Below are positions 1,519 through 21,639 of a stretch of DNA of 46,608 nt, piece by piece. The number at the start of each line of letters is the position of its first letter. Position 1 is the first letter of the stretch. A model generated the notes under the pieces. The model saw only the letters and a list, made by a program, of their open reading frames with translations. It searched no databases and was not told the DNA's origin. Source of the DNA: Candidatus Micrarchaeota archaeon (GTDB taxonomy: Archaea > Micrarchaeota > Micrarchaeia > Norongarragalinales > UBA8480). Location of the stretch: assembly GCA_964514805.1 (NCBI GenBank), contig CAZERP010000002.1, forward strand, positions 1 to 46,608, read 5' to 3'. A program made the position numbers and the translations under genes.

Positions 1519-2277
1519 ATGACTAATTTTGTAACTAGCGAGCTAGAGCATCCGACGTTAGGTGCGCTCAAAATAGAGCATTGGCATAGATACCCGGCAG
1601 ACCAAATATTGGCCGCGTTAAAGGATGAACCGATTATAAGAAGCGGAAATACGCCGCCCGTATTTACTCATGTACTAGGCCGTCAGTGGCTTGCAGTTAG
1701 AAAGTGCGAAAAAGGTGCAATGCCATATTCCGATCAAAAACCAAGGCAAGTTTTTGAAAGTTTAAAGCGAACTATGGAAAAAAGACTACCTGTTCTTGAA
1801 GTTCCAGTTGCATTTATTTCAACTGATGAGCATGAGTATTTGGTGACGTTATGGCGGCGCAACATGCTTCCGTTTAGTTCGTTTAGTTCCAGTTCAGATA
1901 TTTCACTTAAGGATAAGATAACTGCAAGTGAGAGTATAATGCGAGAAGTTGCGAAGTTACACGCGACTGGTTTTAAGCATAGGCATTTGCATTTTGATAA
2001 CTTTCTGGTTCACATGAAAGCGTTTGTCGCTAAAAAAGGTAAACCTGCAATTAGAAGTCGATTAATTGATCCGACTAAGGTAATTTCTTTGCCTGAGAAT
2101 GAGCGTTTAGATTCGAAAAAAGCGTATCCGGTAGAGGCTAGATTGTTGGCAGAAGAAATTAGTAAACAACTGGCGTCAGTACATAAGCTAGGCCATAGTG
2201 CAAAGGAAGAATTAGAAGCTAGATTAAACCGAGAATATGATACGCATTATATAAAAGTTAAAAGTAAATTAAATTAA
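1519..2277 (+). CDS. RIO/Bud32-like minimal kinase-fold protein, non-canonical active site (paralogue 1 of 3)
   Basis: 252 aa. Blocks 'WLAVRK', 'PVAFIS', 'LHATGFKHRHLHFDNFLV' and 'LIDPTKV' are shared with ORFs 5068..5781 and 20944..21639. They resemble the beta3 strand, hinge, catalytic loop and metal-binding loop of RIO/Bud32/Kdo-type kinases. Confidence 0.6.
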   Translation: MTNFVTSELEHPTLGALKIEHWHRYPADQILAALKDEPIIRSGNTPPVFTHVLGRQWLAVRKCEKGAMPYSDQKPRQVFESLKRTMEKRLPVLEVPVAFISTDEHEYLVTLWRRNMLPFSSFSSSSDISLKDKITASESIMREVAKLHATGFKHRHLHFDNFLVHMKAFVAKKGKPAIRSRLIDPTKVISLPENERLDSKKAYPVEARLLAEEISKQLASVHKLGHSAKEELEARLNREYDTHYIKVKSKLN

Positions 2278-2327
2278 TTTTTTAAGAATTAGTATTAAAA
2301 GTGGGAAAAAAGAGAGTTTAGAAAAAT

Positions 2328-2504
2328 TTAGCGTTTTTGTTGTGTTGGTGATCTTTGACCTGCTGGTCGTTCTCTTGATCCGCGTCCGCCTCGGCCTCGG
2401 CCTCTTGTTGTTTCTGGTTTTGCGTTCATTCTCTTCTTGCGTTTTTGGCGCCAGTTCATGTGAGGTTTGCCTTTGTGGGCGTATTTCTTTGCTTTTTCTG
2501 CCAT
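2328..2504 (-). CDS. small basic RGG-rich protein (58 aa), unlisted in ORF track
   Basis: ATG-initiated 59-codon ORF below the track cutoff: MAEKAKKYAHKGKPHMNWRQKRKKRMNAKPETTRGRGRGGRGSRERPAGQRSPTQQKR. About one third of residues are Lys/Arg. It uses the A/C-ending codon dialect typical of minus-strand genes here, and a pyrimidine-rich tract follows its stop. No family assignment. Confidence 0.45.
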   Translation of the reverse strand: MAEKAKKYAHKGKPHMNWRQKRKKRMNAKPETTRGRGRGGRGSRERPAGQRSPTQQKR

Positions 2505-2606
2505 TTAGTTAATTAAACACCATTTAGTTGTTTTTTTTCTATGTAGTTATTAGGGTGGCTTTGGCTTTTTATTCTTTCCAAGCGTAAACAAATACCGTTA
2601 TTAGTT

Positions 2607-3977
2607 ATGATTAATGAGCATATTTTCAAAGCGTATGATATTCGTGGTAAAGTACCAAGTGAGTTGAATGAAGAGGCTGCTTTTCTTATTGGCAGGGGCA
2701 CTGGTACTTTTTTTATTCGTAAAGGAGTTAGGGATGTCGTAACTTCGGTTGACGCGCGAGTTAGTTCTGCGTCTTTGTATGCCGCTTTTTTGAAGGGTTT
2801 TTTGTCAACTGGCTGTAATGCTCATTATATTGGGTGTGTTCCTAGTCCGATTACTTATTTTGCGCAATTACATTTTAAGAAAGAAGGTTGTTCGCTTGTT
2901 ACGGCGAGTCATAATCCGGGCGGAGATAATGGTTTTAAGGGCCGGGCGGGTCATTTGCCTATTTTTGCAAGTGAGATTCAGGATATTCGCAAGTTAATTG
3001 AAATGGGAGATTTTGAAACCGGTAAGGGCCGGGAGTTTAAGCTTGATGGCGCACTTGACGCGTATGCTGATTACTTGAAAAAGAATATTGGTAGTTTGAA
3101 GGGTTTAAAGGTTGGACTTGACCCGGGTAATGGTATGTTTGGCGAGATTGCGCCCCGGGTGTTTAGGGAGTTAGGTTGTGAGGTTAAATCGATTTACACG
3201 AAGGTGGATTGTACTTTTCCTAATCATATTGCCGATCCTGTTTATGTTGAGAATTTGAAAGATTTAACCGCACTTGTTAAGAAGGAAAAGTGTGATGTTG
3301 GTTTTGCTTTTGATGGTGATGGGGATCGTATTGGCGCGATTGACGAAAATGGCTCATACATTCCAGCTGATCGTTTGCTTGCTATTTTTGCTCGCGAAAT
3401 CCTTTCTCGTAAAAAGGGAGCGGTTATCGTTTATGAGGTTACTGCTAGTGACGCGGTTGTTATTGATATTGAAAAGCACGGTGGTAAGGCGATTCTTTCA
3501 AAGACAGGTCATACTCATATAGAGGAGAAAATGGAAGAAACTGGCGCGCTTTTGGCAGGTGAATTGTCTGGTCATCAGTTCTTTAAAGATGGTTATTTGG
3601 GTTATGACGATGGTTTGTATTCGGCGCTTCGTTTTGCTAAGTTAATGGTAAATGAAAAGAAGAAGGCTAGTGAGTTGAACGTGGGTTTTGAAGCGCGCGT
3701 TACTTTTCCTGAGACTCGTTTTGAGTGCAGTAATGAGACTAAGTTTAAAGTCGTTGATAGTATAGTCAAGGCGTTCAAAGCGAAGGGGTATAATGTTAAT
3801 GATTTGGATGGCGCGCGGGTAACTTTCGCAACGGGCTGGGGGCTTGTGCGTGCTAGTAACACGTCGAGTAAGCTTTCTGTACGTTTTGAAGCAAAAACTG
3901 CTGCTGATTTAGAGGTTATTAAAAAAGTTTTTAGAAATGAGTTAAAGAAAAATGGTTTTGATAAATTGCCTTTTTAG
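2607..3977 (+). CDS. phosphoglucomutase/phosphomannomutase (alpha-D-phosphohexomutase family)
   Basis: Carries the active-site Ser loop 'TASHNPGGDNGFK', the Mg site 'FDGDGDR', the sugar loop 'GELSGH' and the phosphate-binding loop 'RASNTSSK'. 456 aa. Confidence 0.9.
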   Translation: MINEHIFKAYDIRGKVPSELNEEAAFLIGRGTGTFFIRKGVRDVVTSVDARVSSASLYAAFLKGFLSTGCNAHYIGCVPSPITYFAQLHFKKEGCSLVTASHNPGGDNGFKGRAGHLPIFASEIQDIRKLIEMGDFETGKGREFKLDGALDAYADYLKKNIGSLKGLKVGLDPGNGMFGEIAPRVFRELGCEVKSIYTKVDCTFPNHIADPVYVENLKDLTALVKKEKCDVGFAFDGDGDRIGAIDENGSYIPADRLLAIFAREILSRKKGAVIVYEVTASDAVVIDIEKHGGKAILSKTGHTHIEEKMEETGALLAGELSGHQFFKDGYLGYDDGLYSALRFAKLMVNEKKKASELNVGFEARVTFPETRFECSNETKFKVVDSIVKAFKAKGYNVNDLDGARVTFATGWGLVRASNTSSKLSVRFEAKTAADLEVIKKVFRNELKKNGFDKLPF

Positions 3978-3988
3978 TGGAATTTTAA

Positions 3989-5071
3989 ATGAATCGGGTT
4001 GTTGTTGTTGGTTGTAGTGTGACGGGCGCGTTAGCGGCTAAGGAAGCTGCGTTAGCGGGCGCTAAGGTTACTGTTTTAGAGGAAGATAAGCAGCCTGGTA
4101 AGTTTCATAAGTGTAGCGGTATTGTTTCTAAAAAGGGACTTGACTCGCTTGGTGTTGATTACTCACCTAGTGTGTTGCATGAGATTTTTGGCGCGAATAT
4201 TTATTCCGCTAAGGGTAGGAAGTTTACTGTCCGTAATAAGGACGTAGTTGCGCTTGTTTTGGACAGACAGTATTTTGATGAATTGTGTACGCGTGAGGCG
4301 ATTCAAGCAGGCGCTGTGCTTAAGCTTGGAGAGAAAGTTACTAATCAGAAAAATAACGCGGTTTTTACTAAGAGTGGGGCTGCTTATGAGTATGATTTTT
4401 TGATTGGCGCAGATGGAGCGTCTAGTACGGTTGCTAATTTGTTTGATTTTCCTAAGGTGCGAACTAAAGATTTTGCTTTGGCATACGAAGCGGAGTTTGA
4501 AAACGCTACGGTAGAAGATGAGCATTTGGTTGATGTTTTTTTGGATAATAAGTTATTTCCTGGTTTTTTTGGTTGGGCAATTCCCGTCGGTAAAAATAAA
4601 GTGCGACTGGGTTTTGGTACTAATGTCCATGCTGGTTTTGAAGAGAGGCGTTTGAAGTTTCTTGAAAAGTACTTACCTAAATATAATACGAGTAAAGCTT
4701 GTGTTAAGTGTCGTGAGTTTTGGCATCCGATTCCTTTGAAGGTGCGAAGCACTACGAGTAGGGGTAATGTGTTTCTTGTTGGGGACGCTGCTGGCCAAGT
4801 TAAGTCAACCACAGGTGGTGGTATTGTGTTTGGGGGGAATTGTGCTAAGATTGCGGGCAGGTTAGCTGCTAGTGGTTCTAAGGCATATGAGAAGCAGTGG
4901 CGTAGTCGTTTTGCTACACCATTAGTTGCGCATCGTAAGATTAGACGTGCATTTGATATTTTACCGAATAGTCTTGTTAATTTAACGGTTATTGGTTTTG
5001 ATAAACTCTTGTTATCTAAATTTTTATCCGAGTTTGGAGACATGGACTTTATTTTAAGTGGTAAAAAATGA
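3989..5071 (+). CDS. geranylgeranyl reductase family FAD-dependent oxidoreductase
   Basis: N-terminal dinucleotide fold 'VVVVGCSVTGALAAKEAALAGAKVTVLEE', plus 'CSGIVS', 'GADGASS' and 'LVGDAAGQVKSTTGGGI'. 360 aa. The antisense ORF 4384..5130 is rejected. Confidence 0.8.
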   Translation: MNRVVVVGCSVTGALAAKEAALAGAKVTVLEEDKQPGKFHKCSGIVSKKGLDSLGVDYSPSVLHEIFGANIYSAKGRKFTVRNKDVVALVLDRQYFDELCTREAIQAGAVLKLGEKVTNQKNNAVFTKSGAAYEYDFLIGADGASSTVANLFDFPKVRTKDFALAYEAEFENATVEDEHLVDVFLDNKLFPGFFGWAIPVGKNKVRLGFGTNVHAGFEERRLKFLEKYLPKYNTSKACVKCREFWHPIPLKVRSTTSRGNVFLVGDAAGQVKSTTGGGIVFGGNCAKIAGRLAASGSKAYEKQWRSRFATPLVAHRKIRRAFDILPNSLVNLTVIGFDKLLLSKFLSEFGDMDFILSGKK

Positions 5072-5781
5072 CATGGGTTAAAAGTAAACTTGCAATTGCA
5101 AAGCCTCGTTTTTCTTATGAAGCAGAGCATAGATCAGATGTTTTGCCTAGTGAAATTGCTAAGGTAATTAGCGAAAAGCCTAATTTTAGTTTTGGTACTA
5201 CTCCGAAAGGTTTTGTTCATACTATTGTAATTAATGGCGAGCCGACTAAGGTTGCGGTTAGACCACTTGAGTCATTTAAGGGTTTTTTTTATTTTCACGC
5301 GTTAAAAAATTGCCATGATAAAGGAATGGATGTTGTAGATACTCCAATTGCATTAGTTACTAGTAAGCGAGGACGTGTTTCGCATTTGATTACTGAATGG
5401 CACGAAGGCGCAGTTAATTTAAAGGATTATTACTCTACGCATAAATTATCTGCAGAGGCGCGTTTAGTTATTGCTAAGCTTGCTATGCATGAGCTTGCAA
5501 AGCTTCATAATGCGGGTTATTATCACGGTCATCCGCATTTGGGTAATTTCGTAACTTATCCTAATTCAAATAGAGTTAAGGTAAATATTGTTGATCCGAC
5601 TATGCTTAATACTAGTTTTCGTAGTGTTAGTAATGAAGATAAATTTTCGGATGCAGTTATTGCAGCGGTTGGCTTTGTACAGAATTTACGTGGACTTAAG
5701 AAGTTAGAATCTGTCGAACCAGATGACGCTTTAATTTTAGAGTTATTAAATGAATATATGCAAAGTAGGCCGCATAGTTGA
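5068..5781 (+). CDS. RIO/Bud32-like minimal kinase-fold protein, non-canonical active site (paralogue 2 of 3)
   Basis: 237 aa with blocks 'KVAVRP', 'PIALVT', 'LHNAGYYHGHPHLGNFVT' and 'IVDPTML'. Its start overlaps the GGR stop (ATGA at 5068..5071). Confidence 0.6.
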   Translation: MTWVKSKLAIAKPRFSYEAEHRSDVLPSEIAKVISEKPNFSFGTTPKGFVHTIVINGEPTKVAVRPLESFKGFFYFHALKNCHDKGMDVVDTPIALVTSKRGRVSHLITEWHEGAVNLKDYYSTHKLSAEARLVIAKLAMHELAKLHNAGYYHGHPHLGNFVTYPNSNRVKVNIVDPTMLNTSFRSVSNEDKFSDAVIAAVGFVQNLRGLKKLESVEPDDALILELLNEYMQSRPHS

Positions 5782-5793
5782 TTTAAGGCGTGT

Positions 5794-6495
5794 TTATTTT
5801 CCGAATCTTCTTTCGGTTTGTTCGTAGTATGTTTTGGCTTCTTCGAAGTCTGTTTTGGTGAATTCAGGCCATAGTTTGTGTGAGAAGTAGAGTTCGCTGT
5901 ATGTTGCTTGGAATGGGAGAAATCCGCTTGTTCTTTGTACGTCTCCTGTTCGTATGATTAGTTCGGGTGTTTTTTGGTAATATAAGTGTTTTTGGAATGT
6001 TTCGGTTGTAATGTCTTCTATTTTGAGTTTGCCGAGTTTTACTTCTTCTGCTATTTTGCGTGAAGCTGCGGTTAATTCGTCTTGGCCGCTGTATGCGATT
6101 GCGATGTTTAGTTCGTATTCTTTGTTGTCTTTGGTTTTTTGTTCTAGTTTGATAATGTCTTGTTTTAGTTTTTCTGGTAGTAGTTCTGTTTTGCCGAAGA
6201 ATTGTACTTTGCAGTCGTAGTTTGATATGACGTTTGAGTTGGTTAGTAGTTTGGCGATGTTTTGGTTCATGAATCTAAATATCGTGTTTAGTTCGCCGTC
6301 GCTTCTGTTTTGGAAGTTTTCTAGTGATAGGGCCCAGAATGATGCGGATTTTACTCCGTTTTCGTATCCCCATTTTACGAATTCTTCGGTTTTTTTGAAG
6401 CCGGCAAGGTAGGCCGCGTCTAGTGAGACGTTGGCTTTTGCGGCGTATCTTCTGTTTCCGTCGGGTATGACTGCGACGCTAGTTAGTTTGTTCAC
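5794..6495 (-). CDS. uppS: cis-prenyltransferase (undecaprenyl/di-trans,poly-cis polyprenyl diphosphate synthase)
   Basis: Carries 'VAVIPDGNRRYA', 'FWALSLENFQNR' and 'IRTGDVQRTSGFLPFQATYSELYF'. 233 aa with a GTG start. Confidence 0.9.
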   Translation of the reverse strand: MNKLTSVAVIPDGNRRYAAKANVSLDAAYLAGFKKTEEFVKWGYENGVKSASFWALSLENFQNRSDGELNTIFRFMNQNIAKLLTNSNVISNYDCKVQFFGKTELLPEKLKQDIIKLEQKTKDNKEYELNIAIAYSGQDELTAASRKIAEEVKLGKLKIEDITTETFQKHLYYQKTPELIIRTGDVQRTSGFLPFQATYSELYFSHKLWPEFTKTDFEEAKTYYEQTERRFGK

Positions 6496-6613
6496 TTTTA
6501 TTTATAAGCACCAAAATGTTGAGTTATAAGTAGAGTTTTGTCTGTTTTTATTTATACTTAATTAGTACTAAACCTAGTTTAAAATTCCTTTGGGAGCCTA
6601 TTAAAATAACGAC

Positions 6614-6964
6614 ATGGCGAAAATTGTTGACGCGTCTATTAGACGTTCAGGTAAAGTAGTTTGGAGTAAGTATGAGGCTACTAGTAGTTTTTTTGAAAAG
6701 TTTAAGGGCATTATGTTGCGTAAAAGAATTGATTTTCCTCTTTTGTTTACTTTTACTTACCTTGGTAAGTGGAGTATTCATTCTTGTTTTTGTAGTTTTG
6801 ATTTTGACGCTGTTTTTTTGGATGAAAATAAGAAGATTGTTACTATCGCGCGGGGAGTTAAACCGTGGACTTTATCCGTTACGCCAAGCGAGTGTTTGTA
6901 TTTGATTGAATGTACTGCTGGAGAGGCGCGTGAATTGCAAGTTGGAGATGTTTTGGAATGGTAA
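6614..6964 (+). CDS. DUF192-like protein
   Basis: 116 aa. 'FKGIMLRK..FPLLFTF', 'FDFDAVFLDENKKIV' and 'YLIECTAGEARELQVGDVLE' follow the DUF192 (COG1430) pattern GLM.R...mlF...LD.iFld..g.V....yvlE...G......Gd.v. Confidence 0.7.
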   Translation: MAKIVDASIRRSGKVVWSKYEATSSFFEKFKGIMLRKRIDFPLLFTFTYLGKWSIHSCFCSFDFDAVFLDENKKIVTIARGVKPWTLSVTPSECLYLIECTAGEARELQVGDVLEW

Positions 6965-8199
6965 GCTTAGGTTGGAGCATTTCTAAAGATGCGCAGTATG
7001 TTAATTCTGATTTTAGTAGTTGTAGTTTGACTGAAGGGGAAGAGAAGGTAGCTATTGATTTGATTGGTTTGTTTTCTAAGATTCAAAATGTTAGAAACGC
7101 GCAGGATACTCTTAAGGAGTTACTTATAGAGTATTGTTCAGATAATAATATCGCAATGGAGCGCCGGCAATCGGATAAAATTATCAAAACTACTTTGCTT
7201 GTGACTGGCGGTTTTGGTCCTATTTCTATTCTTCTTGAAGATTCAAGTATTGAAGAAATTACCGCTACTGGAGTTAATCTTCCAGTAAGAGTTTTTGTAA
7301 AGGGTAAGGGTTGGCTTACTAGCGCGGTTGTAATTACGAGTAGCGAGTTTGCAGTTGATGTTATTAATAAAATGGCCCGCGGACTTGGAAGAAGAATTAC
7401 TTATCAGTATCCTCGTTTGAATGCTAGTTTGCCTGATGGTTCTAGGTTGCATGCATGTATTAATCCAGTTGTTTTAGATTTTGAGTTTACTATCCGTAAG
7501 TTTAAAGAAAAGCCATACGTTCTGCAAGAGCTTGTTGATTTGAATACAATTTCTAAGGACGCGGCGGGTTTTCTTACCGCGTGTGTGAATGCTGATTTGA
7601 ATGGAGTTATTGCGGGTAATACTGGTAGTGGTAAAACTACTACGCTTAACGCGTTGTGTGCTAATTGGCAGTTGGATGAGCGGGTTGTTCTTATTGAAGA
7701 AACTCCCGAAATTTCTATTCCGCATGAGCATAAAGTTTCGTTAGTTTGTGTTCCTGAGATTGGGGTTTCTATGCAAGATCTTGTGCATGATTCTCTTCGT
7801 ATGCGTCCTGATCGGGTAGTAATGGGCGAGGTTCGTACTGAGAAAGAAGTTGACGCGCTTTTTGATTCTTTGCTTGCAGGTCAAGCTAAGGGCACTTGGA
7901 CTACTTTTCACGCCAATTCGTCAGAAGAAGCTTTGAATCGTTTCAAGTCGCTTGGGGTTGCAGAGCAGGATTTGAATTCAGTTGATTTGATTGTAATTCA
8001 ACGTAGAGTTACTCGTTTTAAGCAAGATAAGAAAGAAGAGTTACGTAAGGTAACTGAAATAGCAGCAGTTGAAAATTCCAAGTCAATTGTTTTGTTTAAA
8101 ATGAACAGCGAAGATGAACTTGAGAAGACGAAAGATTATTCAAACAAGAAGTTGAAATTATTCGAAAAACTAAAAACTACATACGGAAAAGAAATTTAG
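6958..8199 (+). CDS. type II/IV secretion-family ATPase (VirB11/FlaI/CpaF-like)
   Basis: Walker A 'GNTGSGKTTTLNAL', 'RVVLIEETPEI', 'LRMRPDRVVMGEVR' and His-box 'WTTFHANS'. 413 aa. Its start overlaps the DUF192 gene by 7 nt (ATGGTAA). Confidence 0.85.
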   Translation: MVSLGWSISKDAQYVNSDFSSCSLTEGEEKVAIDLIGLFSKIQNVRNAQDTLKELLIEYCSDNNIAMERRQSDKIIKTTLLVTGGFGPISILLEDSSIEEITATGVNLPVRVFVKGKGWLTSAVVITSSEFAVDVINKMARGLGRRITYQYPRLNASLPDGSRLHACINPVVLDFEFTIRKFKEKPYVLQELVDLNTISKDAAGFLTACVNADLNGVIAGNTGSGKTTTLNALCANWQLDERVVLIEETPEISIPHEHKVSLVCVPEIGVSMQDLVHDSLRMRPDRVVMGEVRTEKEVDALFDSLLAGQAKGTWTTFHANSSEEALNRFKSLGVAEQDLNSVDLIVIQRRVTRFKQDKKEELRKVTEIAAVENSKSIVLFKMNSEDELEKTKDYSNKKLKLFEKLKTTYGKEI

Positions 8200-8909
8200 C
8201 GTAGTTTTCTTAGTTGGGTTTTGATCCATTCTTCTGCTTGGTAGTGGTGTTCGTATTTGCGTTCGTCTTGTTTGAATTCTGTTGTGTGTACTGTTCGTCT
8301 CATGGATTCTCCTCTTTGGTATTTGACGTCGTGTTTTGCGTGTAGTAGTTCGTGGAATATGACGTTTTCAATTGCGTATCTTGGTACCCGTGGGTCGTCG
8401 AATATACTTGATATGAATATCATGTGGTGCGCCGAGTCGTAGTAACCTAGTCGTCTTTTGCTTGCCGCAGGAGAGTAGCTTATTTCAGGTAGAGCGCCGA
8501 TTGGTTCGAATACGTTCCAATATTTGATGCTAATTTCTCGTAGGACTTCGTCCAAATTATAAAAAGAACCTTGTACTACTTTACGTCGTTTTCCGCGTTC
8601 TTTGCGTAGGGCTTCGTTGTGTTTGGCTACGCTTTCTCGTGACATGAATTCTTTGTAAGTGTCTATTTCTTTTTGTACTTGCACGGGGGGTTTGCGTTTA
8701 AACATCCTAAAAATTATTGAGAACGCCATACCGTCGAGTACTTCTTGGGGCGCGGAGTTGTACGCGTCTGAAATTGTTACGTCTAGTTCGTTTCCTTTGT
8801 AGGTTGCGCTGACTTGGTAGCCTGCTTTTTCTTTTACTTTAATGTTTACACTAGCTGTGTTGCCTAGTAGTAAAAGGGCACGTATGAAGGGTAGTTGGAA
8901 GTCAACCAT
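8196..8909 (-). CDS. SprT/YgjP(DUF45)-like zinc metallopeptidase
   Basis: 237 aa. HExxH in 'VIFHELLHAKHDV' is followed by 'HTTEFKQDERKYEHH' and preceded by 'RRLGYYDSAHHMIFIS', which is the layout of SprT/DUF45 proteins. It converges on the ATPase gene and overlaps its stop. Confidence 0.55.
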   Translation of the reverse strand: MVDFQLPFIRALLLLGNTASVNIKVKEKAGYQVSATYKGNELDVTISDAYNSAPQEVLDGMAFSIIFRMFKRKPPVQVQKEIDTYKEFMSRESVAKHNEALRKERGKRRKVVQGSFYNLDEVLREISIKYWNVFEPIGALPEISYSPAASKRRLGYYDSAHHMIFISSIFDDPRVPRYAIENVIFHELLHAKHDVKYQRGESMRRTVHTTEFKQDERKYEHHYQAEEWIKTQLRKLR

Positions 8910-8946
8910 ACTTGTTTATATGTATCGTTTTTTCTTGTATTTATTA

Positions 8947-9264
8947 GGGGCAGGTGGGTGAAGCGACTCACCGCTAGTTAAGATTAAAAAATCGAAGGAT
9001 TTTAACAGGGGAGGAACTTCTGCACACTCGATTCACACTTTAGAACTGTAATGGTTCTACACTGTAAGGGTGTTCCCGTGGGAACAGAAACGAGACCGCT
9101 TGACCACATAATGCTATGAGTCACCGTGCGAGCGCTTCAATGTGCGCAGCGGGTGAAACGCGCCTTTGGGAAAAGTTTTGCGAGTGCAAGGCGAGAAATT
9201 CGCCGCTTTATAGTCTAATGTCGCTAGCAAACGAACAGAATGCAGAGTACGACCCAACTGCCCC
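8947..9264 (+). ncRNA. rnpB: RNase P RNA (archaeal type-A-like)
   Basis: About 318 nt. The P1 closure pairs ggggcag (8947-8953) with ctgcccc (9258-9264). A CR-I-like 'gaggaacttctgca' (9011-9024) and a CR-V-like 'acagaatgcagagta' (9235-9249) are present. In these, ACU(U)CUGCA pairs with UGCAGAGU, giving a P4 helix with the conserved single bulged U. 'gggtgaaac' matches the J11/12 GGGUGAAA motif. The listed ORF 9116..9304 lies inside it. Confidence 0.8.
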
Positions 9265-13003: not shown

Positions 13004-13004
13004 A

Positions 13005-13966: not shown

Positions 13967-14006
13967 AAATTTTTTAATTCCCTTCTTCTCTTTTTTTTAA
14001 ATAGTC

Positions 14007-14825: not shown

Positions 14826-15474
14826 TTCTTTTGAATGGCGCGCCTATTCGACTTAATGCGACTCTGTGTTCTTTTATTCTTAGGTGCATAGCATGCATTT
14901 GTAGTGCTTTTAGGAGTGGACCAGTTGCGCGGATGTATTTAGTATATGCGTGCATTACGTTTACGCCGCCGTCGAATGTTTCGTGGTGTCCTAGTAGTTC
15001 TTCTATTGAGCTTTCGTCACTGGCGTTTGGTCCATCTAGTGTTGAATCGTCGATGTGGTCCATTGTTTCGTCAATAGACATTGTGTCAGTTTGGTGGCGT
15101 ACTGGTTTGAAGTAGAAGTGAGTTATTTCGAAGGTGTTGTTTTTTATTTGTTTGACTTTTACGTGAACTAAGTTTTTTCCTGCGATTGGTGTGATTAAAC
15201 CGTGCATTTCTTTAGTTTCTTTGAATTTACGTAAGTCAGGTAATTCAACGACGGGGTTGTCGTGTAGTTCTTTTAATGCCGCTACTTCTTTACGCGGAAG
15301 TTGAATTGGAATTTCTAATTCTTTTGGATTTGCCCCGGCTAGAGTGGAAGTGAATTGTACTAATTTAGCCCCTTTACCCGGAACAAATGTTACGTACAAG
15401 CGGTTGATTTTTTCAGTTGGCGCTATTGAACGCCTGGCATTTTGTATGTGTTCATGTAATGTTTGAAATTGCAT
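14818..15474 (-). CDS. hypothetical His-rich protein (218 aa), upstream gene of overlapping pair
   Basis: ATG-initiated ORF starting 40 nt downstream of the tRNA 3-prime end on the same strand. No recognisable family. Confidence 0.65.
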   Translation of the reverse strand: MQFQTLHEHIQNARRSIAPTEKINRLYVTFVPGKGAKLVQFTSTLAGANPKELEIPIQLPRKEVAALKELHDNPVVELPDLRKFKETKEMHGLITPIAGKNLVHVKVKQIKNNTFEITHFYFKPVRHQTDTMSIDETMDHIDDSTLDGPNASDESSIEELLGHHETFDGGVNVMHAYTKYIRATGPLLKALQMHAMHLRIKEHRVALSRIGAPFKRSE

Positions 15475-15514
15475 GTTTTAATCTATTAGTAGTAAGGGCG
15501 AGTGTGTTTTTAAG

Positions 15515-15649
15515 TGCCGCGGGCGAGATTTGAACACGCGACCTCCAGATGGCTCAAGCGCTCAAGTTATTCTAAACCAGCATAGATTTGGTTATTCTAA
15601 GTTGGTTTACTTTATGAGTCTGGCGCTCCACCGACTAAGCTACCGCGGC
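15515..15649 (-). tRNA. tRNA(CAU) (Met or Ile2) with a 62-nt intron at the canonical 37/38 position
   Basis: The reverse strand reads GCCGCGG-TA-GCTT-AGTCGGTG-GAGC-G-CCAGA-CTCATA[intron]A-TCTGG-AGGTC-GCGTG-TTCAAAT-CTCGC-CCGCGGC-A. The exons total 73 nt. The CAT anticodon is the complement of 15614-15616. There is one U52-U62 mismatch in the T stem. Confidence 0.85.
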
Positions 15650-15719
15650 ACTTAATTTGTTTTTAGCGTTAAAATTAGTAATATTTCTTAGGAATGTGTG
15701 GTTATAAAAAACGTTTCTT

Positions 15720-16799
15720 GTGTTAATATTGTTGCTATTCTTTATGGACGTAACCTCGTTTTTATCTTCTTTTTCGCAAAATTCACTAGTGCGTTTACTT
15801 GACGTACCTATTGCGGACGCGTATTTTGTTTTTCTTGTGTTGCCGCTTGTGTTTTTGGTTTTGGCGCTTTACTTTTATTTTGTTAAAAAGGACGTTAAAA
15901 CCGTCAAAGTTTTGCTCTTATCTCTTTTGTTAGCTGGGGTTTTGTCGATTGCTTTAAAGAGCATCTATCATGAAGCAAGGCCATGCGCAGGACTACTGGA
16001 ATGTAATTCTGATTTTGGTTTTCCATCTAGTCATGCTAGTGTGACTTTTGCAATTGCTTTTGCACTTATTGGCACTGAAATGTTTTTACCTGCACTTATT
16101 TTTGCGCTTTATGCTTCGATTATGCGCGTTTTGACTGGTTTACATAGTTTTCCTCAAATTGTCGCCGGAGCGGTTCTTGGAGTTATTTCGGCTATTTTGA
16201 TTCGTGATTTACTAATTAAGAACTTAGAAAAGGTAAAACAGGCTAGAAATGAAAGTATACGTCAAGTTGTTCATTTTTTGAGCGCTGTTTTTGGAATTGC
16301 GCTGTTTTATGTTTTTGATTTTGAGGTCGCGGTTCTTATTTTGAGTGTTGTTTTGATTGCGGGCATTGTGCTATTTAGTTTTGTTCAAAGTAATCGTCTT
16401 AGTTTTTTGGTTAAGCGCATCTCTCATTTAGAACGCAGCGGGGATCTTATCGGCAGGGGCGCGTTGAGTCTTTGTCTTGGAGTAATGTTTACGCTTCTGT
16501 TTTCTAGACCGCTTCAAGATGCTTTTGCAGTGGTTGCAATTCTTGCAGTTGCAGATGCCGCGTCTACTATTATAGGTGTTCGTTTTGGTACGCGTAAGTT
16601 TAGTTTTAATTCTAAAAAGTCAATTCAAGGAACTGCCGCATTTATAGTCGCTGGTTTTATCGCAGGTAGTCTTTTTGTTCCTATGGAGAAAGCTTTTGTT
16701 TTAGCCGCGGTTTTAGCGGTTGTTGAAATTCTTCCATTGAGAGTTGATGATAATCTTTCTATTCCAATTGTAGGCAGTTTGCTTACTTTAATTTTGTAA
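15720..16799 (+). CDS. fusion protein: PAP2 phosphatase domain + dolichol/polyprenol kinase-like (CTP-transferase-1 family) domain
   Basis: The N-terminal half carries PAP2 motifs 'KSIYHEARP' (Kx6RP), 'PSSH' and 'MRVLTGLHSFPQIVAG' (the usual Asp of SRx5Hx3D is Gln). The C-terminal half carries 'AVADAASTIIGVRFGTRKF..SKKSIQGTAAFIVAGF' and 'VVEILPLRVDDNLSIPIV', as in SEC59/dolichol kinase (COG0170). The start is uncertain (GTG at 15720 or ATG at 15744). Confidence 0.7.
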   Translation: MLILLLFFMDVTSFLSSFSQNSLVRLLDVPIADAYFVFLVLPLVFLVLALYFYFVKKDVKTVKVLLLSLLLAGVLSIALKSIYHEARPCAGLLECNSDFGFPSSHASVTFAIAFALIGTEMFLPALIFALYASIMRVLTGLHSFPQIVAGAVLGVISAILIRDLLIKNLEKVKQARNESIRQVVHFLSAVFGIALFYVFDFEVAVLILSVVLIAGIVLFSFVQSNRLSFLVKRISHLERSGDLIGRGALSLCLGVMFTLLFSRPLQDAFAVVAILAVADAASTIIGVRFGTRKFSFNSKKSIQGTAAFIVAGFIAGSLFVPMEKAFVLAAVLAVVEILPLRVDDNLSIPIVGSLLTLIL

Positions 16800-16818
16800 A
16801 AGGTGTTTTTTTGAAATA

Positions 16819-17457
16819 ATGAAGGGCGTTTTTATTGTTATTGAAGGTATTGATGGCGCAGGTAAGGGCAACGTGATGATGCGCTTGCAAGAATACATTA
16901 TGGGTAAAAGTAAAAAGTACGATCATTTGCTTTTAACTCGTGAGCCGACTTTTGGCCCGATTGGTAGTAAAGCACGTGAGCTATTAGCTAATGAATCGGA
17001 TCCATATAAAAATGCACAGTTGTGTTTGAAATTATATACGGATGATCGTAAGTGGCATTGTAAGGAGCACATAAAGCCTGCATTAGATAAAGACTACGTT
17101 GTTTTGTGTGACAGGTATAAGTATTCTACTTATGTTTTTCAACAAACTCAAGGTTTATCTGTAGATGACATACATGCGGCACATACGGGCGTTTTGATTC
17201 CTGATTTAACGATTGTTTTAGATGTAGACGTACAAGTTGCACTTTCACGTATGAATGGCGAGAATCGCGGTGGGTCGAAGGCAGGAGAGAAGTTTGAAAA
17301 AAGAGAATTTATGGAAAAACTTAAGGAGAAGTATCTTGAGTTACCTAAGCTGTTTCCAAGTGAAAAGATTGTTGTGATTAACGCGAATTTTTCTAAAGAA
17401 CAAGTAGCACAAGAAGCGATTAAAGCACTTGAAAACGCGAAAGTATTACCTTGGTGA
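16819..17457 (+). CDS. tmk: thymidylate kinase
   Basis: P-loop 'IVIEGIDGAGKG', 'LTREPT' and 'CDRYKYSTYVFQ' (DRY/S..AYQ motif). 212 aa. Confidence 0.9.
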   Translation: MKGVFIVIEGIDGAGKGNVMMRLQEYIMGKSKKYDHLLLTREPTFGPIGSKARELLANESDPYKNAQLCLKLYTDDRKWHCKEHIKPALDKDYVVLCDRYKYSTYVFQQTQGLSVDDIHAAHTGVLIPDLTIVLDVDVQVALSRMNGENRGGSKAGEKFEKREFMEKLKEKYLELPKLFPSEKIVVINANFSKEQVAQEAIKALENAKVLPW

Positions 17458-17465
17458 AATTAATT

Positions 17466-17867
17466 ATGGCTGATTGTGTTTTTTGTAAAGTTGTAAAGGG
17501 CGAGTTGCCTTCGTATAAAATTTATGAGGATGAAAAGACGCTTGCTTTTCTTGACATTTATCCCGTCTACAAAGGGCATACACTTGTAATTCCTAAAATA
17601 CATACGGAAAGTATTAGTGATATTTCGCAAAGTGATTTAGCAGCAGTCGCAGCGGCTAGTAAAAAGGTTGCTAAATTGCTTAAAGAGAAGTTAAATTATG
17701 ATGGAGTTAATTTAGTTCAATCTAATGGCAAAGCAGCAAGTCAAGTTGTCATGCATTTTCACATGCATGTAGTTCCACGTTTCACAGGAGATGGTTTGAA
17801 TTTGTGGACGCATGGCGAAAAACCAAGTTTTGATTTAAAGAAAATTCACGAAGAAATCACAAAATAG
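17466..17867 (+). CDS. HIT (histidine triad) family hydrolase
   Basis: 'CVFCKVVKGELP', 'GHTLVIPK' and the histidine triad 'HFHMHVVPR'. I prefer the ATG at 17466 over the track GTG at 17451. Confidence 0.9.
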   Translation: MADCVFCKVVKGELPSYKIYEDEKTLAFLDIYPVYKGHTLVIPKIHTESISDISQSDLAAVAAASKKVAKLLKEKLNYDGVNLVQSNGKAASQVVMHFHMHVVPRFTGDGLNLWTHGEKPSFDLKKIHEEITK

Positions 17868-18030
17868 GCGTTAAACGCAGTTAATAAAAACACTTACTTT
17901 CCTTATTTATTTACTAATTTTTTAGTCATTTTAAGAAAACTTGTTTACAGATAGCGCGTCTTTTTTCCTTGACGGGGATGTGCCAGAACGAGTGATCTTT
18001 TAGAGACTGTATTTTTTGAATCACTTTTTT

Positions 18031-18105
18031 GCTCCAATCGTCTAGTTCGGTCAAGGACATCGGCCTTTCAAGCCGCTAACCCGGGTTCAAATCCCGGCTG
18101 GAGCA
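18031..18105 (+). tRNA. tRNA-Glu(UUC)
   Basis: GCTCCAA-TC-GTCT-AGTTCGGTCAA-GGAC-A-TCGGC-CTTTCAA-GCCGC-TAAC-CCGGG-TTCAAAT-CCCGG-CTGGAGC-A. 75 nt. It has two mismatches (A7-C66 and U27-C43). A T8 run follows at 18106-18113. Confidence 0.85.
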
Positions 18106-18128
18106 TTTTTTTTATTAGGGTTTTAGCG

Positions 18129-18596
18129 TTAGCGCTTTAGTTTGGCTTTGAGTTGTTCTATTTCTTGTTCTTTTTGTTTTAGTTCAGTCACGTCGTTTGC
18201 TATGCTCATTATTCTTTTGGTTTTGTCTGAACTTTGTACTATTTTAGTTATACTACGTATCCATGCAGTTTTTCCGTTTTTGGTTTTTATTCTATAAGTA
18301 ATATCATAGGGTATATTGTTTTGTTTGAGTTGCATTATGCTTTGTACTAGTCGATCTTTGTCTTCTAGGTATACTGCGTCGAACCATTCTTGTGGTGATT
18401 CGCGTATTTTTTTTGGGTCATAACCCCATAGTTTAGTGAGGGCTGGGCTTATGTACATTATTTTATCTGGGTTATTTGCGTCTAATATCCAGAATACTTC
18501 GCTAGCTTCGTTTACGATTGGTTTAAGACATTCGTATAGTTGTAGTGATTCTTCTATTGAGTTTTTTATTTTGGGAAAGTCTACTTTGCCGGTCAT
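18129..18596 (-). CDS. stand-alone PAS/PAC sensor domain protein with C-terminal coiled coil
   Basis: 155 aa. 'FWILDANNPDKIMYISPALTKLWGYDPKKI', 'YDITYRIKTKNGKTAWIRS' and 'IMSIANDVTELKQKEQEIEQLK' form a typical PAS-PAC layout. No output domain is present. An SD-like aggtg lies 7 nt upstream. Confidence 0.8.
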   Translation of the reverse strand: MTGKVDFPKIKNSIEESLQLYECLKPIVNEASEVFWILDANNPDKIMYISPALTKLWGYDPKKIRESPQEWFDAVYLEDKDRLVQSIMQLKQNNIPYDITYRIKTKNGKTAWIRSITKIVQSSDKTKRIMSIANDVTELKQKEQEIEQLKAKLKR

Positions 18597-18693
18597 AAAT
18601 TAACACCTAGTCGTTAAAAAAAAATTCTTTTTTAGTGGATGTAAATAACGGTTTTTGCCTTAAAAAGATTAGTAGTATGAAAAGTTCGTTTTT

Positions 18694-18786
18694 TTATTTT
18701 GTTTTTGGTGTGCCGGTTATTGCTATGAAGAATATGATTATCCAGAAGAGTAGTTCGAATTGTTCTTTGAGTGTAAATAGTAACAT
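18694..18786 (-). CDS. mini-ORF B, 30-aa single-TM peptide (candidate)
   Basis: MLLFTLKEQFELLFWIIIFFIAITGTPKTK. ATG start and TAA stop. It lies 8 nt downstream of mini-ORF A and shares 'FELLFW', a hydrophobic core and a basic tail with it. Below the ORF-track cutoff. Coding status is not proven. Confidence 0.35.
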   Translation of the reverse strand: MLLFTLKEQFELLFWIIIFFIAITGTPKTK

Positions 18787-18794
18787 TTTTTTGT

Positions 18795-18881
18795 TTATTT
18801 GGATCCTTTGGAGGGTATTGCTATTGCTAGGAGAAAAACTAAAGCCCAAAATAGTAGTTCGAATATTTCCCTAAACTCCAT
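18795..18881 (-). CDS. mini-ORF A, 28-aa single-TM peptide (candidate)
   Basis: MEFREIFELLFWALVFLLAIAIPSKGSK. ATG start and TAA stop. Paralogous to mini-ORF B. The listed + ORF 18635..18874 covers the same DNA on the other strand and looks like a shadow. Confidence 0.35.
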   Translation of the reverse strand: MEFREIFELLFWALVFLLAIAIPSKGSK

Positions 18882-18969
18882 ATTTTCTATTAAACAAGTA
18901 GAACAGATTAATCTTTTCATAACCCGCAATATATTGTTTTAAAGTCTAAGCGTGTTTTTCTTAGTAATT

Positions 18970-19974
18970 ATGGCTGTTTTTGAATGGGCTCATCGCAATG
19001 GTTTTGTTAAAACATATACTGATAACAATAGAACCCCCCACACTGTGATTAGACTTGCCAATGGTAATTTACTTGTTAATGAGTTTAAGGCTGAAATTCG
19101 AAAAGCTGGTGGTCTTTTGAACTTTTTAGCAATGGAAAACACCCCTGTTCCTATTTTGTATGAAACTATGACTCGTTGGAGTCATGAAGATGGCGCGCCT
19201 AAGTTTTTTTTAAGTCACCCGGCTGTTCTTAGGCATGAGGTTTTGAAAGTTTTAAACGGGCAGAAGTTAGTTAAGCGAATTAAAGATAAGAATGGCAAAC
19301 GTCATCCGGTGGTTATTTTGGATAAAGCTTTTCAAAAGATTCCGGGAGGTAAGCGTTTTGTTGACGTGATGAAGAATTATCATGGCGGCGAACTTGAGTT
19401 GCCGCGGATTTTAGGGATTCCTGTTTTATATCGAAGTGGCTCGCAGGGTAATGATAATCATTACTTGAGTAATGATTTGGTTTTTAGAAATGAGTTTTTG
19501 AAATTTGCGCGCAGGCATAAGCTCTTCAAAAGGTTTGTAGATGCTAAAGGCGAGGTACATAGATTGATTGTTTTGCCTGGAAAGCTTAGGGACACTCCTA
19601 GTGGTCGGAGTTTTGAAAATGCGCTTCAAAGACGTGCTAAAAAAACTAAAAGGTCTATGGGCGAACATTTGACTAGTTTAGTTGAAGTTCCAATTGTAGC
19701 AAATTATAGAGGTAATTCGGAAGATAATTCGTCTATTCCGACGTATTTGTCGCATCCGGCTGTTTTTAATCACGAGTTTAGGCAGTTAGCTGCAAGTAAA
19801 GGATTGCTCAAACGAGTTAGTGGTGAAGATGTTTTAGAAGTGCCGCATACTAATTTGCATGCGTTTTTGCGCGAACACTTTGAACCATATTTACACGTGA
19901 TGATTAGATATTATAATGGTAGTAATAAAAATAATTTAGAAAGTTTAACTGGTTTAAAAATCCGCACAAGGTAA
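18970..19974 (+). CDS. hypothetical protein built of about four degenerate 80-90-aa repeats
   Basis: Repeat starts are 'FEWAHRNGFVKTYTD', 'FLSHPAVLRHEVLKVLNGQKLVKRIKD', 'YLSNDLVFRNEFLKFARRHKLFKRFVD' and 'YLSHPAVFNHEFRQLAASKGLLKRVSG'. I prefer the ATG at 18970 over the GTG at 18952. Confidence 0.65.
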   Translation: MAVFEWAHRNGFVKTYTDNNRTPHTVIRLANGNLLVNEFKAEIRKAGGLLNFLAMENTPVPILYETMTRWSHEDGAPKFFLSHPAVLRHEVLKVLNGQKLVKRIKDKNGKRHPVVILDKAFQKIPGGKRFVDVMKNYHGGELELPRILGIPVLYRSGSQGNDNHYLSNDLVFRNEFLKFARRHKLFKRFVDAKGEVHRLIVLPGKLRDTPSGRSFENALQRRAKKTKRSMGEHLTSLVEVPIVANYRGNSEDNSSIPTYLSHPAVFNHEFRQLAASKGLLKRVSGEDVLEVPHTNLHAFLREHFEPYLHVMIRYYNGSNKNNLESLTGLKIRTR

Positions 19975-19982
19975 GGTTTTAG

Positions 19983-20900
19983 TTAGAGGTTGTTTCGTAT
20001 TACGCGTTCTATGTCGAATGCTATTCCTTTGGGTTGTGAGGTTATTTCTTCTGTTGTCATTAGGGCTTTTGCTATGCAGAGTAGTTCTTCTTTTCCGGTG
20101 TAGATTGCTACTAATTCGTCTTTTTTGATTCCTTTGGATAACGCGTTGATTCCGGGAATGGCTAGGTCTGCTCCGGTTGTTATGGGTTTTATTGCTCCGT
20201 CTGATACGATTACTTTTTTGAGGCCTGTTACGTCTTCGATGTTGTGGATGTGTTTTGATAATTCATCTTTGCCTTGTTCTTTGTATAGCCACCATAGGTC
20301 GGATAGTTCTTGTAGGGTTATGCAGTTTTTTTCTGTGAATTTTCCGGCTTTGGTTCTTCGTAGTTCAGTCATTTCGGCTTTTGCGCCAGTTAGTTCTCCG
20401 AAGTCAAAACAAAGGTTACGAATATACGTTCCGGCTTGTACATTTGCGCGATACAAAACGCAGTTGTCTTTTACTTCGATTACTTCTAGTTCGTGTACTT
20501 TTCTTGTGCGTAGTCGTTTGGCTACTGCGCTTGCAAGTGGCGGGGTTTGGTATATTTCTCCGCGGAAGTTATCCATTACTTGTTCTACTTTGTTAAGTGG
20601 AAGGGGTTTTTCGATTGTCATTAGGCAGACGTATTCTTTGTCTTTGTCTGCTAGGTAGTTGGCGGCTTTGGTTGAGTCGTTGAATAGAATTGTTAGTACT
20701 CCTGATACGTTATAGTCTAGTGTTCCAGTGTGACCGGTTTTGCCAGTTTCTAGTATGTTTTTTACGAATGCTGAGACTTCGTGGCTTGTTGGCCCTACGG
20801 GTTTGTCTACGCAGAGTACGCCTGTTTGGAGTTTTTCTTCTAAGTTGCGTTCTGATGGCTTTTTGCCGGCAATATATTTCTCTTGACGAAGGATAATCAT
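19983..20900 (-). CDS. cbf5: tRNA/rRNA pseudouridine synthase Cbf5 (archaeal TruB with PUA domain)
   Basis: 'GVLCVDKPVGPTSHEV', the catalytic 'GHTGTLDYNVSGVL', and a C-terminal PUA-like region 'VIVSDGAIKPITTGADLAIPGI'. 305 aa. Confidence 0.9.
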   Translation of the reverse strand: MIILRQEKYIAGKKPSERNLEEKLQTGVLCVDKPVGPTSHEVSAFVKNILETGKTGHTGTLDYNVSGVLTILFNDSTKAANYLADKDKEYVCLMTIEKPLPLNKVEQVMDNFRGEIYQTPPLASAVAKRLRTRKVHELEVIEVKDNCVLYRANVQAGTYIRNLCFDFGELTGAKAEMTELRRTKAGKFTEKNCITLQELSDLWWLYKEQGKDELSKHIHNIEDVTGLKKVIVSDGAIKPITTGADLAIPGINALSKGIKKDELVAIYTGKEELLCIAKALMTTEEITSQPKGIAFDIERVIRNNL

Positions 20901-20943
20901 ATATTTAAAATTACTAACAATATTAGTAGATTGTTACCATTTT

Positions 20944-21639
20944 ATGCCTTTGGAATTAATTGAAAGTAAGGTAGAATACAGGGGCGCTAATTATGAAATT
21001 AAGCATTTACCCTTAATTGACGCGCAGGAGATTATTCGCACAGTAAACTCTACTCCATTAGATATTGTTGGAATTTATCCTAAAGTTGAACGTTTTAATT
21101 TAGTTAAAAAAAGCGGAGTACAAATGCCCGTTGCAGTTAGGTGGATTCGAATAGGGGACTTGAATCAACCGCCTGCTGAAGATTTATTTGAAAGTTTAGT
21201 TGAAAGTGCTAAAAGGAAGGCGGCTATTGTTGAGAGTCCTATTGCTTTTATTAGAAACGCGCATAAAGTTGGTATTATTACTACTTGGAAAAAAGATACG
21301 GTGCCCATGCCTGTGTTTTTGCTTGACAAAAATGTAAGTAGCGAGCGTAAGATTAAAGCATGTGTGACGTTGTATCGCAAAATTGCGCGGTTGCATGCGG
21401 CTGGTTTTACTCATTTGCATCTTAATCCAGATAATGCGCTTGTTGATAGTAAGGATCAGGGCCATATGGTGGATTTTACGCAAATGAAGCGTTTGACTGA
21501 ATTTCGTAGATGGGTTGATTTAATTAAGTTTAGAGCAAGATTAGGTAAGTATGTGCATGGCGATTTACGTAAAGCTATTGATAGTAAATTAAGAGCCGCG
21601 TATGAATTAGAGTATGAAAAGCATAGGATGATCGTGTGA
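20944..21639 (+). CDS. RIO/Bud32-like minimal kinase-fold protein, non-canonical active site (paralogue 3 of 3)
   Basis: 231 aa with blocks 'PVAVRW', 'PIAFIR', 'LHAAGFTHLHLNPDNALV' and 'MVDFTQM' (the last is close to RIO 'IIDFPQ'). Confidence 0.6.
   Translation: MPLELIESKVEYRGANYEIKHLPLIDAQEIIRTVNSTPLDIVGIYPKVERFNLVKKSGVQMPVAVRWIRIGDLNQPPAEDLFESLVESAKRKAAIVESPIAFIRNAHKVGIITTWKKDTVPMPVFLLDKNVSSERKIKACVTLYRKIARLHAAGFTHLHLNPDNALVDSKDQGHMVDFTQMKRLTEFRRWVDLIKFRARLGKYVHGDLRKAIDSKLRAAYELEYEKHRMIV

Follow-up and report, generated by a model that had tools for sequence, protein, structure and literature searches.

The stretch of DNA analyzed here (hereafter the window) comprises positions 1–46608 of contig CAZERP010000002.1, from a Candidatus Micrarchaeota archaeon. 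Its gene content includes an archaeal-type AlaRS, Cbf5, a FlaI/VirB11-type ATPase, a geranylgeranyl-reductase-family gene, EF-1alpha, PyrBI and NucS, and its EF-1alpha is 85–86% identical to proteins of 'Candidatus Micrarchaeota archaeon' or of Norongarragalinales, an order of the class Micrarchaeia, which marks the window as a fragment of a DPANN genome. The window also carries three genes, w1, w2 and w3, that encode small, mutually related proteins. We found that these proteins belong to a family with a predicted minimal protein-kinase-like fold in which, judging from profile alignments, the active-site Lys and Asp are replaced by Arg and His. The family is previously undescribed, although the protein-kinase-like fold itself is known.

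Three paralogous genes share one set of motifs

The genes had been flagged in a reading of the DNA made without database searches (hereafter the sequence-only reading), which took them for RIO/Bud32-like kinase-fold proteins with non-canonical catalytic residues. Open reading frame (ORF) calls recovered all three at the coordinates that it gave, on the + strand (Table 1). Their products align end to end, as it had proposed, at 23–31% identity and with pairwise BLASTP E values of 4e-15 (w1/w2), 3e-19 (w1/w3) and 3e-8 (w2/w3). By these alignments w1, w2 and w3 are true paralogues; all three genes are intact. A profile built from the paralogues and run against all six-frame ORFs found no fourth copy in the window.

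The motifs quoted in the sequence-only reading are all present and align in a single register. The beta3 motif reads LAVR61K in w1, VAVR65P in w2 and VAVR66W in w3; the catalytic-loop motif reads LH..G..H154-R-H156....N161, H153-G-H155....N160 and H157-L-H159....N164, respectively; and the DFG-type motif reads LID184PT, IVD176PT and MVD177FT. One label did not hold. The segment PVAFIS/PIALVT/PIAFIR, which had been called the hinge, corresponds to strand beta4 (residues 99–104) in the structural model of w3 described below, and the hinge is located after beta5, at a conserved T-x-W-K-K.

Predicted structures point to a minimal protein-kinase-like fold

We ran AlphaFold2 with a 72-sequence alignment of the family. 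The w3 model reached a predicted local distance difference test score (pLDDT) of 95.1 and a predicted template-modelling score (pTM) of 0.89, and the w2 model a pLDDT of 92.8. The predicted architecture opens with an N-terminal beta-hairpin and helix; the N-lobe that follows has five strands and alphaC, and the C-lobe is truncated and lacks an activation segment, with no substrate-binding insertions evident there in either model. When the models were compared with the PDB using Foldseek, at least 1867 structures matched w3 and at least 1278 matched w2 at E<=1e-3, and the best 50 listed for each model were protein kinases in every case. The top matches of w2 were PRPK/Bud32 proteins (human PRPK and Arabidopsis KEOPS Bud32; 6wqx_D, 7szc, 8k20_B), aligned over nearly their full length (202–223 columns; TMq 0.55–0.60, TMt 0.58–0.61), while PRPK/Bud32 was absent from the best 50 listed for w3. 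A HMMER comparison of the family profile with PDB sequences gave a best E value of 3e-8, with KSR1 as the top match. The kinase-like fold that the sequence-only reading had guessed at, and would have given up had neither profiles nor structures matched it, is thus supported by both, and on these models the family of w1–w3 is a minimal protein-kinase-like fold whose overall architecture is closest to Bud32/PRPK.

Curated models recognize these proteins only below threshold. In Pfam, w1, w2 and w3 scored 16.6, 21.2 and 17.1 bits against Kdo/WaaP (gathering threshold 21.3), with weak, likewise sub-threshold matches to ABC1 and Pkinase and no match of any of the three to RIO1 (PF01163). In NCBIfam, w3 matched a Kdo kinase model and arch_bud32 (TIGR03724), the latter at 21.2 bits against a cut-off of 125. 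Searching 72 members singly at E<0.01 gave Kdo in 22 (best E 6.7e-7), Pkinase in 14, PK_Tyr_Ser-Thr in 8, Kinase-like in 6, APH in 3 and RIO1 in 1; for 10 members searched against NCBIfam, arch_bud32 was the top or a near-top match in 8, at 20–30 bits. No Pfam or NCBIfam model reached threshold, indicating that no curated model covers the family. These searches, of the kind that the sequence-only reading had proposed as a check, qualify its "RIO/Bud32-like" label: Bud32/PRPK is closest by fold and in NCBIfam and Kdo/WaaP in Pfam, whereas RIO is not close.

Arg and His occupy the positions of the catalytic Lys and Asp

We placed the active-site residues using HMMER profile alignments to PDB kinases together with the secondary-structure register of the AlphaFold2 models. 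In the alignments of both the paralogue and the family profiles, the family's LAVR falls on VAIK, and KSR1 naturally has Arg at this position (VAIR, in EVAIRLL). The H-G-H-L-K-x-x-N of the family falls on H-K/R-D-L-K-x-x-N, so that the second His of H-x-H lies on the HRD/HGD Asp; this column matched the HKD/HRD Asp of KSR1, MELK and 9emy. The loop Asn aligned with the canonical loop Asn and the Asp of LVD with the DFG Asp. The w3 model agrees with this register, with the Arg in strand beta3, H-x-H between beta6 and beta7, and the Asp directly after beta8. The predicted replacement of Lys by Arg and of Asp by His, with the loop Asn and the DFG-type Asp retained, was thus borne out as far as alignments and models can place these residues. 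The operational definition of a pseudokinase requires that the beta3 Lys, the HRD Asp or the DFG Asp be missing; two of these three are missing here, so that the label applies, although it refers to sequence only.

These replacements are conserved across a larger family. When 1.84 billion cluster representatives were searched exhaustively with HMMER, 381 matched at E<1e-3 and 98 at E<1e-10, about 75–100 of them full-length proteins of about 225–270 amino acids (aa); a word-indexed protein search, by comparison, returned 3 matches per query. Over 97 short representatives (denominators below 97 give the scorable sequences), the beta3 residue is Arg in 72/82 and Lys in 4, and the residue at the catalytic-base position is His in 86/96 and Asp in 5. 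The loop Asn is present in 94/97, the DFG-type Asp in 91/93 and the HRD-type His in 91/96. The Arg and His columns are thus conserved across homologues, as the sequence-only reading had anticipated. Arg and His occur jointly in 65 sequences, with (K,D), (K,H) and (R,D) as rare alternatives; the source of one (K,D) member (P0091) is also a Micrarchaeota archaeon.

The family signature reads (L/V)A(V)R ... VExPVA ... VTxWKK ... LAKLHAAG(F/Y)xHGH(L/P)(K/H)xxNFVV ... L(V/I)D(Y/P)T, and H21, P46, F82, L85, E97, P99, A101, T113, W115, K116 and K136 are also near-invariant. The family representatives have no GxGxxG loop, the beta1–beta2 segment reading G43(69%)-x-x-P46(86%)-x-V48...H51...G54, and no conserved acidic residue at any alphaC position; when KSR1 is aligned to the family profile, its alphaC Glu lies in an insertion. 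Among the retained residues, the Ala of A-x-(K/R) (79%), a beta2 Val (75%) and a probable gatekeeper Thr (88%) would, by analogy with known kinases, line a predicted adenine pocket. The family proteins are basic, with a median isoelectric point of 9.86.

An old, multi-copy family of Micrarchaeota

All family members that carry a source name are annotated as "hypothetical protein" and come from Candidatus Micrarchaeota or Norongarragalinales. We also scanned GTDB genomes with a degenerate DNA pattern for LHAxG[FY]xHxHxxxxN. Among the matches listed, at least 6 were true family genes, all in Micrarchaeota metagenome-assembled genomes (MAGs), and the rest were mostly unrelated long bacterial kinase-like genes. 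The family therefore appears, from the sequences recovered, to be Micrarchaeota-wide and so far restricted to Micrarchaeota. The scan also turned up long (~450–700 aa) kinase-like proteins in many genomes of Acidobacteriaceae, Terracidiphilus and Edaphobacter; at least some of these proteins seem to have a membrane segment, and their catalytic loop reads LHAKGFVHGH(V/I/L)KPSNIL (e.g. L038 2874–4280, L074 1918–4011 and L120 181–1731, among loci L006–L120). His at the HRD-Asp position is thus found in a bacterial family too, apparently independently.

Several assemblies contain more than one copy, with at least 3 in JAZDHP01 (including two separated by 4.4 kb), at least 2 in JBDRDM01, and both P0006 and P0008 in GCA_053535655.1. 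One JBDRDM01 gene (L081 6713–7550) is split into overlapping ORFs, 6713–7375 and 7209–7550, either a frameshifted pseudogene or an assembly error. We judged the age of the window paralogues from raw pairwise distances and ranks. Kimura distances among w1–w3 are 1.8–2.5, against a family median of 1.77, and each of the three has many outside representatives that score higher than its window paralogues. The window genes are thus no closer to one another than random family pairs are, indicating that the duplications are old. The lineage-specific expansion proposed in the sequence-only reading stands insofar as the family is multi-copy and confined to Micrarchaeota so far; it is ancient, however, rather than recent or specific to this genome, as the distances and the copies in related assemblies indicate.

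To compare selection on these genes with that on their neighbors, we used two syntenic contigs from related populations, L001 and L125. The L001 orthologue of w2 (P0003) is 68% identical in amino acid sequence, with a ratio of nonsynonymous to synonymous substitution rates (dN/dS) of 0.27, whereas neighboring genes are 89–99% identical with dN/dS of 0.03–0.16. The L125 orthologue of w3 (P0004) is 97% identical with dN/dS of 0.14, against 0.04–0.05 for its neighbors. Purifying selection acts on both w2 and w3, which are real genes, though the constraint is somewhat weaker than on their housekeeping neighbors. Together with the ~88–98% conservation of Arg, His, Asn and Asp in the 97 diverged representatives, these ratios bear out the view that the substitutions reflect selection and not decay.

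The w1 locus differs between close relatives. L001 has about 88–92% nucleotide identity to the window and the flanks of w1 are 88–98% identical, but w1 itself is cleanly absent, with ~150 bp of unrelated sequence in its place (1488–2290 in the window versus L001 7156–7303). Two other samples encode the identical w1 protein amid the same neighbors. Presence or absence of the entire gene is thus a polymorphism between close relatives.

Family genes occupy conserved slots in core operons

Within the window, w1 is a stand-alone gene. The ATG of w2 overlaps the TGA of the preceding geranylgeranyl-reductase-family gene (ATGA), indicating translational coupling, and the arrangement of the w2 neighborhood (Table 1) is also present in L001. 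Cbf5 and w3 are divergent and 43 bp apart, an arrangement shared with L125.

Elsewhere, family genes (X) lie within operons of core functions: L7Ae-KH-S12-S7-X-EF2; Rpr2-S19e-dsDNA_bind-L39e-L31e-eIF6-prefoldin-X-FtsY, a slot found in two different MAGs, with a second family copy immediately upstream of Rpr2 in one locus; eRF1/Pelota-like-X; and Cdc6<-SepF-X, in two assemblies. Further neighborhoods are AAA+ (Mg-chelatase-like)-X and X-JAB/MPN. Distinct paralogues thus keep conserved slots inside core operons of different genomes. An all-versus-all comparison of neighbors revealed no universally conserved partner gene, and no Kae1 (Peptidase_M22) gene or fusion was listed near members in the loci examined. 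A role as a defense system is unsupported, PADLOC having given weak, generic kinase-domain matches only.

Between w1 and the phosphogluco/phosphomannomutase (PGM/PMM) gene lies a conserved, extremely basic 58-aa ORF (MAEKAKKYAHKGKPHMNWRQKRKKRMNAKPE...), also present in L001, L126 and L127, which could encode a small ribosomal-type or nucleic-acid-binding protein.

Table 1. Features of the window and predicted secondary structure of w3
Feature	Position	Strand	Description or basis
w1	1519..2277	+	Family member, 252 aa; ORF and translation; family hidden Markov model E 2.9e-64
w1 key residues	R61 (codon 1699-1701), H154, H156 (1984-1986), N161 (1999-2001), D184 (2068-2070)
w2	5068..5781	+	Family member, 237 aa; ORF and translation
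w2 key residues	R65 (5260-5262), H153, H155 (5530-5532), N160 (5545-5547), D176 (5593-5595)
w3	20944..21639	+	Family member, 231 aa; ORF and translation
w3 key residues	R66 (21139-21141), H157, H159 (21418-21420), N164 (21433-21435), D177 (21472-21474)
w3 N-terminal elements	beta-hairpin 6-21, helix 27-34 (residues)		AlphaFold2 model
w3 N-lobe	beta1-beta3 40-69, alphaC 78-90, beta4 99-104, beta5 108-114 (residues)		AlphaFold2 model
w3 C-lobe	alphaD and alphaE 133-152 (residues), then catalytic loop, beta7 and beta8, Asp, two C-terminal helices		AlphaFold2 model
58-aa ORF	2328-2504	-	Extremely basic, conserved
PGM/PMM gene	2607-3977	+	NCBIfam, Pfam; upstream of w2
Geranylgeranyl-reductase-family gene	3989-5071	+	NCBIfam, Pfam; directly upstream of w2
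cis-Prenyltransferase (UppS-type) gene	5794-6495	convergent with w2	NCBIfam, Pfam
tRNA match	15515-15649	-	Rfam
340-aa gene	18952-19974	+
Cbf5 pseudouridine synthase gene	19983..20900	-	NCBIfam NF003280, 351 bits
300-aa gene	22999-23901	+	Unannotated
821-aa ORF	36112-38580	-	No Pfam match
1335-aa ORF	42189-46199	-	Beta-helix and purple-acid-phosphatase-N-like domains

Comparison with known minimal kinases and pseudokinases

Bud32/PRPK (TP53RK; TIGR03724) shares with the family the smallest kinase-like architecture (~210–260 aa, with a truncated C-lobe and no activation segment) and a catalytic loop of the HG(D) type with a following Asn, as well as a DFG-type Asp; it also provides the best full-length structural match for w2 and the most consistent NCBIfam match. 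The family differs in its sub-threshold arch_bud32 scores, its His and Arg in place of the catalytic Asp and beta3 Lys, its extra N-terminal hairpin and helix, its several copies per genome, and its lack of Kae1 adjacency or fusion in the loci examined. In archaea, the RIO kinases are likewise minimal; they are atypical kinases or ATPases with a link to ribosome biogenesis and have the catalytic loop HGDLSxxN and the metal loop IDxxQ. The MVDFTQM of w3 appears to resemble the IIDFPQ of Rio2, a comparison that the sequence-only reading also drew. Only 1 of 72 members matched RIO1, however, and the family departs from RIO in lacking an STGKEA-type nucleotide loop and, again, in having His for Asp and Arg for Lys.

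Kdo/WaaP (PF06293), the most frequent Pfam match, shares an H-x-(D)-L/P-H-x-G-N style of catalytic loop, and tandem Kdo-like bacterial proteins with HxDLHxGN were the next-best library matches in our HMMER search. Those bacterial sugar kinases keep Lys and Asp, in contrast to the HGH, AVR and smaller C-lobe of the archaeal family. The Kdo/WaaP scores of the family point to a distant relationship rather than to clean membership, and the Asp that defines Kdo/WaaP is replaced. The replacement of the beta3 Lys by Arg is shared with KSR1/2, ActPs2 and DYD; however, KSR keeps the HKD Asp and a full eukaryotic-protein-kinase C-lobe, ActPs2 has HRN and has lost DFG, and none of these proteins has His at the catalytic base, is archaeal or is minimal in size. 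A 2025 review of bacterial pseudokinase families (PMC12599244) lists ActPs2 and DYD as Lys-to-Arg families, predicted to retain ATP binding; among the families that it covers, none has His in place of the HRD Asp and none is archaeal. We found nothing relevant in the literature on a Micrarchaeota pseudokinase or on His in place of the catalytic Asp.

A remodeled active site and its possible functions

From the conservation of these columns, the active site looks consistently remodeled to Arg and His and maintained rather than decayed, with both predicted metal ligands kept. Our preferred explanation, with a probability of roughly 0.6, is a Bud32-like minimal family that keeps predicted nucleotide and metal binding and serves as an ATPase or switch or as a phosphotransferase of altered chemistry. 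Binding of nucleotide and divalent metal is probably kept, to judge from the retained Ala of A-x-K, beta2 Val, putative gatekeeper Thr, Asn and Asp. Bud32 acts as an ATPase rather than as a signaling kinase, and the family proteins may likewise act in the style of Bud32 or RIO and not as classical protein kinases. The Arg would hold the nucleotide phosphates; the His could be a general base, a phosphate or anion ligand, or a transient phospho-acceptor; and separate paralogues might serve the machineries with which they are co-transcribed, namely translation and ribosome factors, the signal recognition particle (SRP) receptor, SepF and Cbf5.

The functional part of this explanation, in which predicted nucleotide and metal binding is kept and the proteins work as ATPase switches or atypical phosphotransferases in the manner of Bud32 and RIO, we put at slightly below even odds. 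A more far-reaching proposal makes the proteins catalytically active kinase-fold enzymes that use His for Asp (as general base, transient phospho-acceptor or cationic ligand of an anionic acceptor), with the ancient paralogues as dedicated nucleotide-driven switches for core machineries; this we consider rather unlikely. As phospho-acceptor, the His would give a phospho-His analogue of the RIO phospho-Asp cycle, and the switches would act on ribosome and translation factors, the SRP receptor, SepF-dependent division and Cbf5 ribonucleoproteins, possibly replacing RIO/Bud32-type ATPases.

Several observations weigh against the preferred explanation. Four canonical ATP-site elements are missing from the alignments (the Lys, the Asp, the Gly-rich loop and the alphaC Glu), which makes these proteins pseudokinases by the operational definition, and residue placement comes from profile alignments and not from a ligand-bound three-dimensional superposition. 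The neighborhoods are heterogeneous: w1 stands alone, w2 comes after sugar/isoprenoid genes, and further members come after an AAA+ or JAB gene. Because translation genes abound in small DPANN genomes, adjacency to them in a reduced genome is suggestive but weak evidence, and many other proteins of the window are basic too. Finally, a close relative does without w1, and w2 evolves faster than the genes around it.

The main rival is that these are non-catalytic pseudokinases, scaffolds or conformational (possibly nucleotide-sensing) modules that bind proteins or RNA, with Arg and His kept for structure or for a ligand. The same four missing elements favor it, as do the faster evolution relative to neighboring genes and the presence or absence of w1 between close relatives, and a Lys-to-Arg change is typical of known pseudokinases such as KSR1, ActPs2 and DYD. 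Scaffold-only pseudokinases, however, usually lose the metal ligands as well, whereas here the Asn (97%), the Asp (98%) and the HRD-type His (95%) show the degree of conservation typical of active kinases, and the replacement residues are chemically competent (a cationic Arg, an ionizable His) and themselves 88–90% conserved. We regard a purely non-catalytic role as somewhat doubtful. Small-molecule kinases of the Kdo/WaaP/APH type, acting on sugars, lipids or other phosphate acceptors, with w2 perhaps in dolichol-phosphate or glycan metabolism, are quite unlikely. A cationic Arg/His site would suit an anionic acceptor, Kdo/WaaP and its tandem bacterial relatives are the recurrent weak matches (w2 at 0.1 bit below gathering), and w2 is coupled to PGM/PMM and geranylgeranyl-reductase-family genes and faces a cis-prenyltransferase, in an arrangement conserved in L001. 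But this sugar/isoprenoid context is confined to w2 and its close orthologue, the other paralogues lying in translation, cell-division and RNA operons, and the fold is matched better by Bud32/PRPK, with no evident insertions for binding a substrate.

The weak but consistent arch_bud32 matches, the PRPK and KEOPS Bud32 structures at the top of the w2 list, and the location of family genes near RNA-modification and ribosome genes could also indicate that the proteins are simply divergent Bud32 (KEOPS) or RIO orthologues of the organism and not a separate family. This is highly improbable given bit scores of 20–30 against a cut-off of 125, RIO1 in only 1/72 members, at least three copies per genome, neighborhoods that, where examined, contain neither a Kae1 gene nor a fusion to one, and replacement of the catalytic Asp that is essential in both Bud32 and RIO. 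That the genes are unannotated and that one relative has lost w1 might suggest chance ORFs or decaying pseudogenes, but the results refute this: pairwise E values reach 3e-19, ~100 diverged relatives carry the same signature, dN/dS is 0.14–0.27, and the AlphaFold2 models are confident.

The retention of several paralogues in genome-reduced symbionts implies a real function. Catalogues of pseudokinases center on eukaryotes and bacteria, and the family would add to them a natural, strongly conserved active site with Lys-to-Arg and Asp-to-His changes in the smallest kinase scaffold, as well as a case of a lineage-restricted family with several copies embedded in the core operons of DPANN symbionts with reduced genomes. 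Its natural (K,D), (K,H) and (R,D) intermediates provide a ready series for assessing the contribution of each residue. Should the proteins prove active, the chemistry known for the kinase fold would become broader; should they prove inactive, the family would to our knowledge be the first widespread archaeal pseudokinase family.

Other features of the window

Comparison with L125 showed mosaic divergence near w3. The 300-aa gene is 66.6% identical to its L125 counterpart (dN/dS 0.37) while the genes that flank it are 99.5–100% identical, and the 340-aa gene is 86.8% identical to its counterpart, a mosaic suggestive of recombination or of hypervariable, perhaps surface, genes. L125 also carries, with the 340-aa gene on one side and Cbf5 on the other, a gene for a 938-aa Big_9/Laminin_G_3 protein (L125 2974–5790) that is absent from the window. 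The 821-aa and 1335-aa ORFs are candidate surface or host-interaction proteins.

The tRNA match, from Rfam, spans 135 nucleotides and model positions 1–71 at 53.5 bits. It was not reported by ARAGORN and is probably an intron-containing archaeal tRNA. GC skew is strongly and uniformly positive throughout the window (+0.09 to +0.48), cumulative GC skew rises monotonically, and AT skew is mostly negative, a strand asymmetry that is unusually marked for an archaeon.

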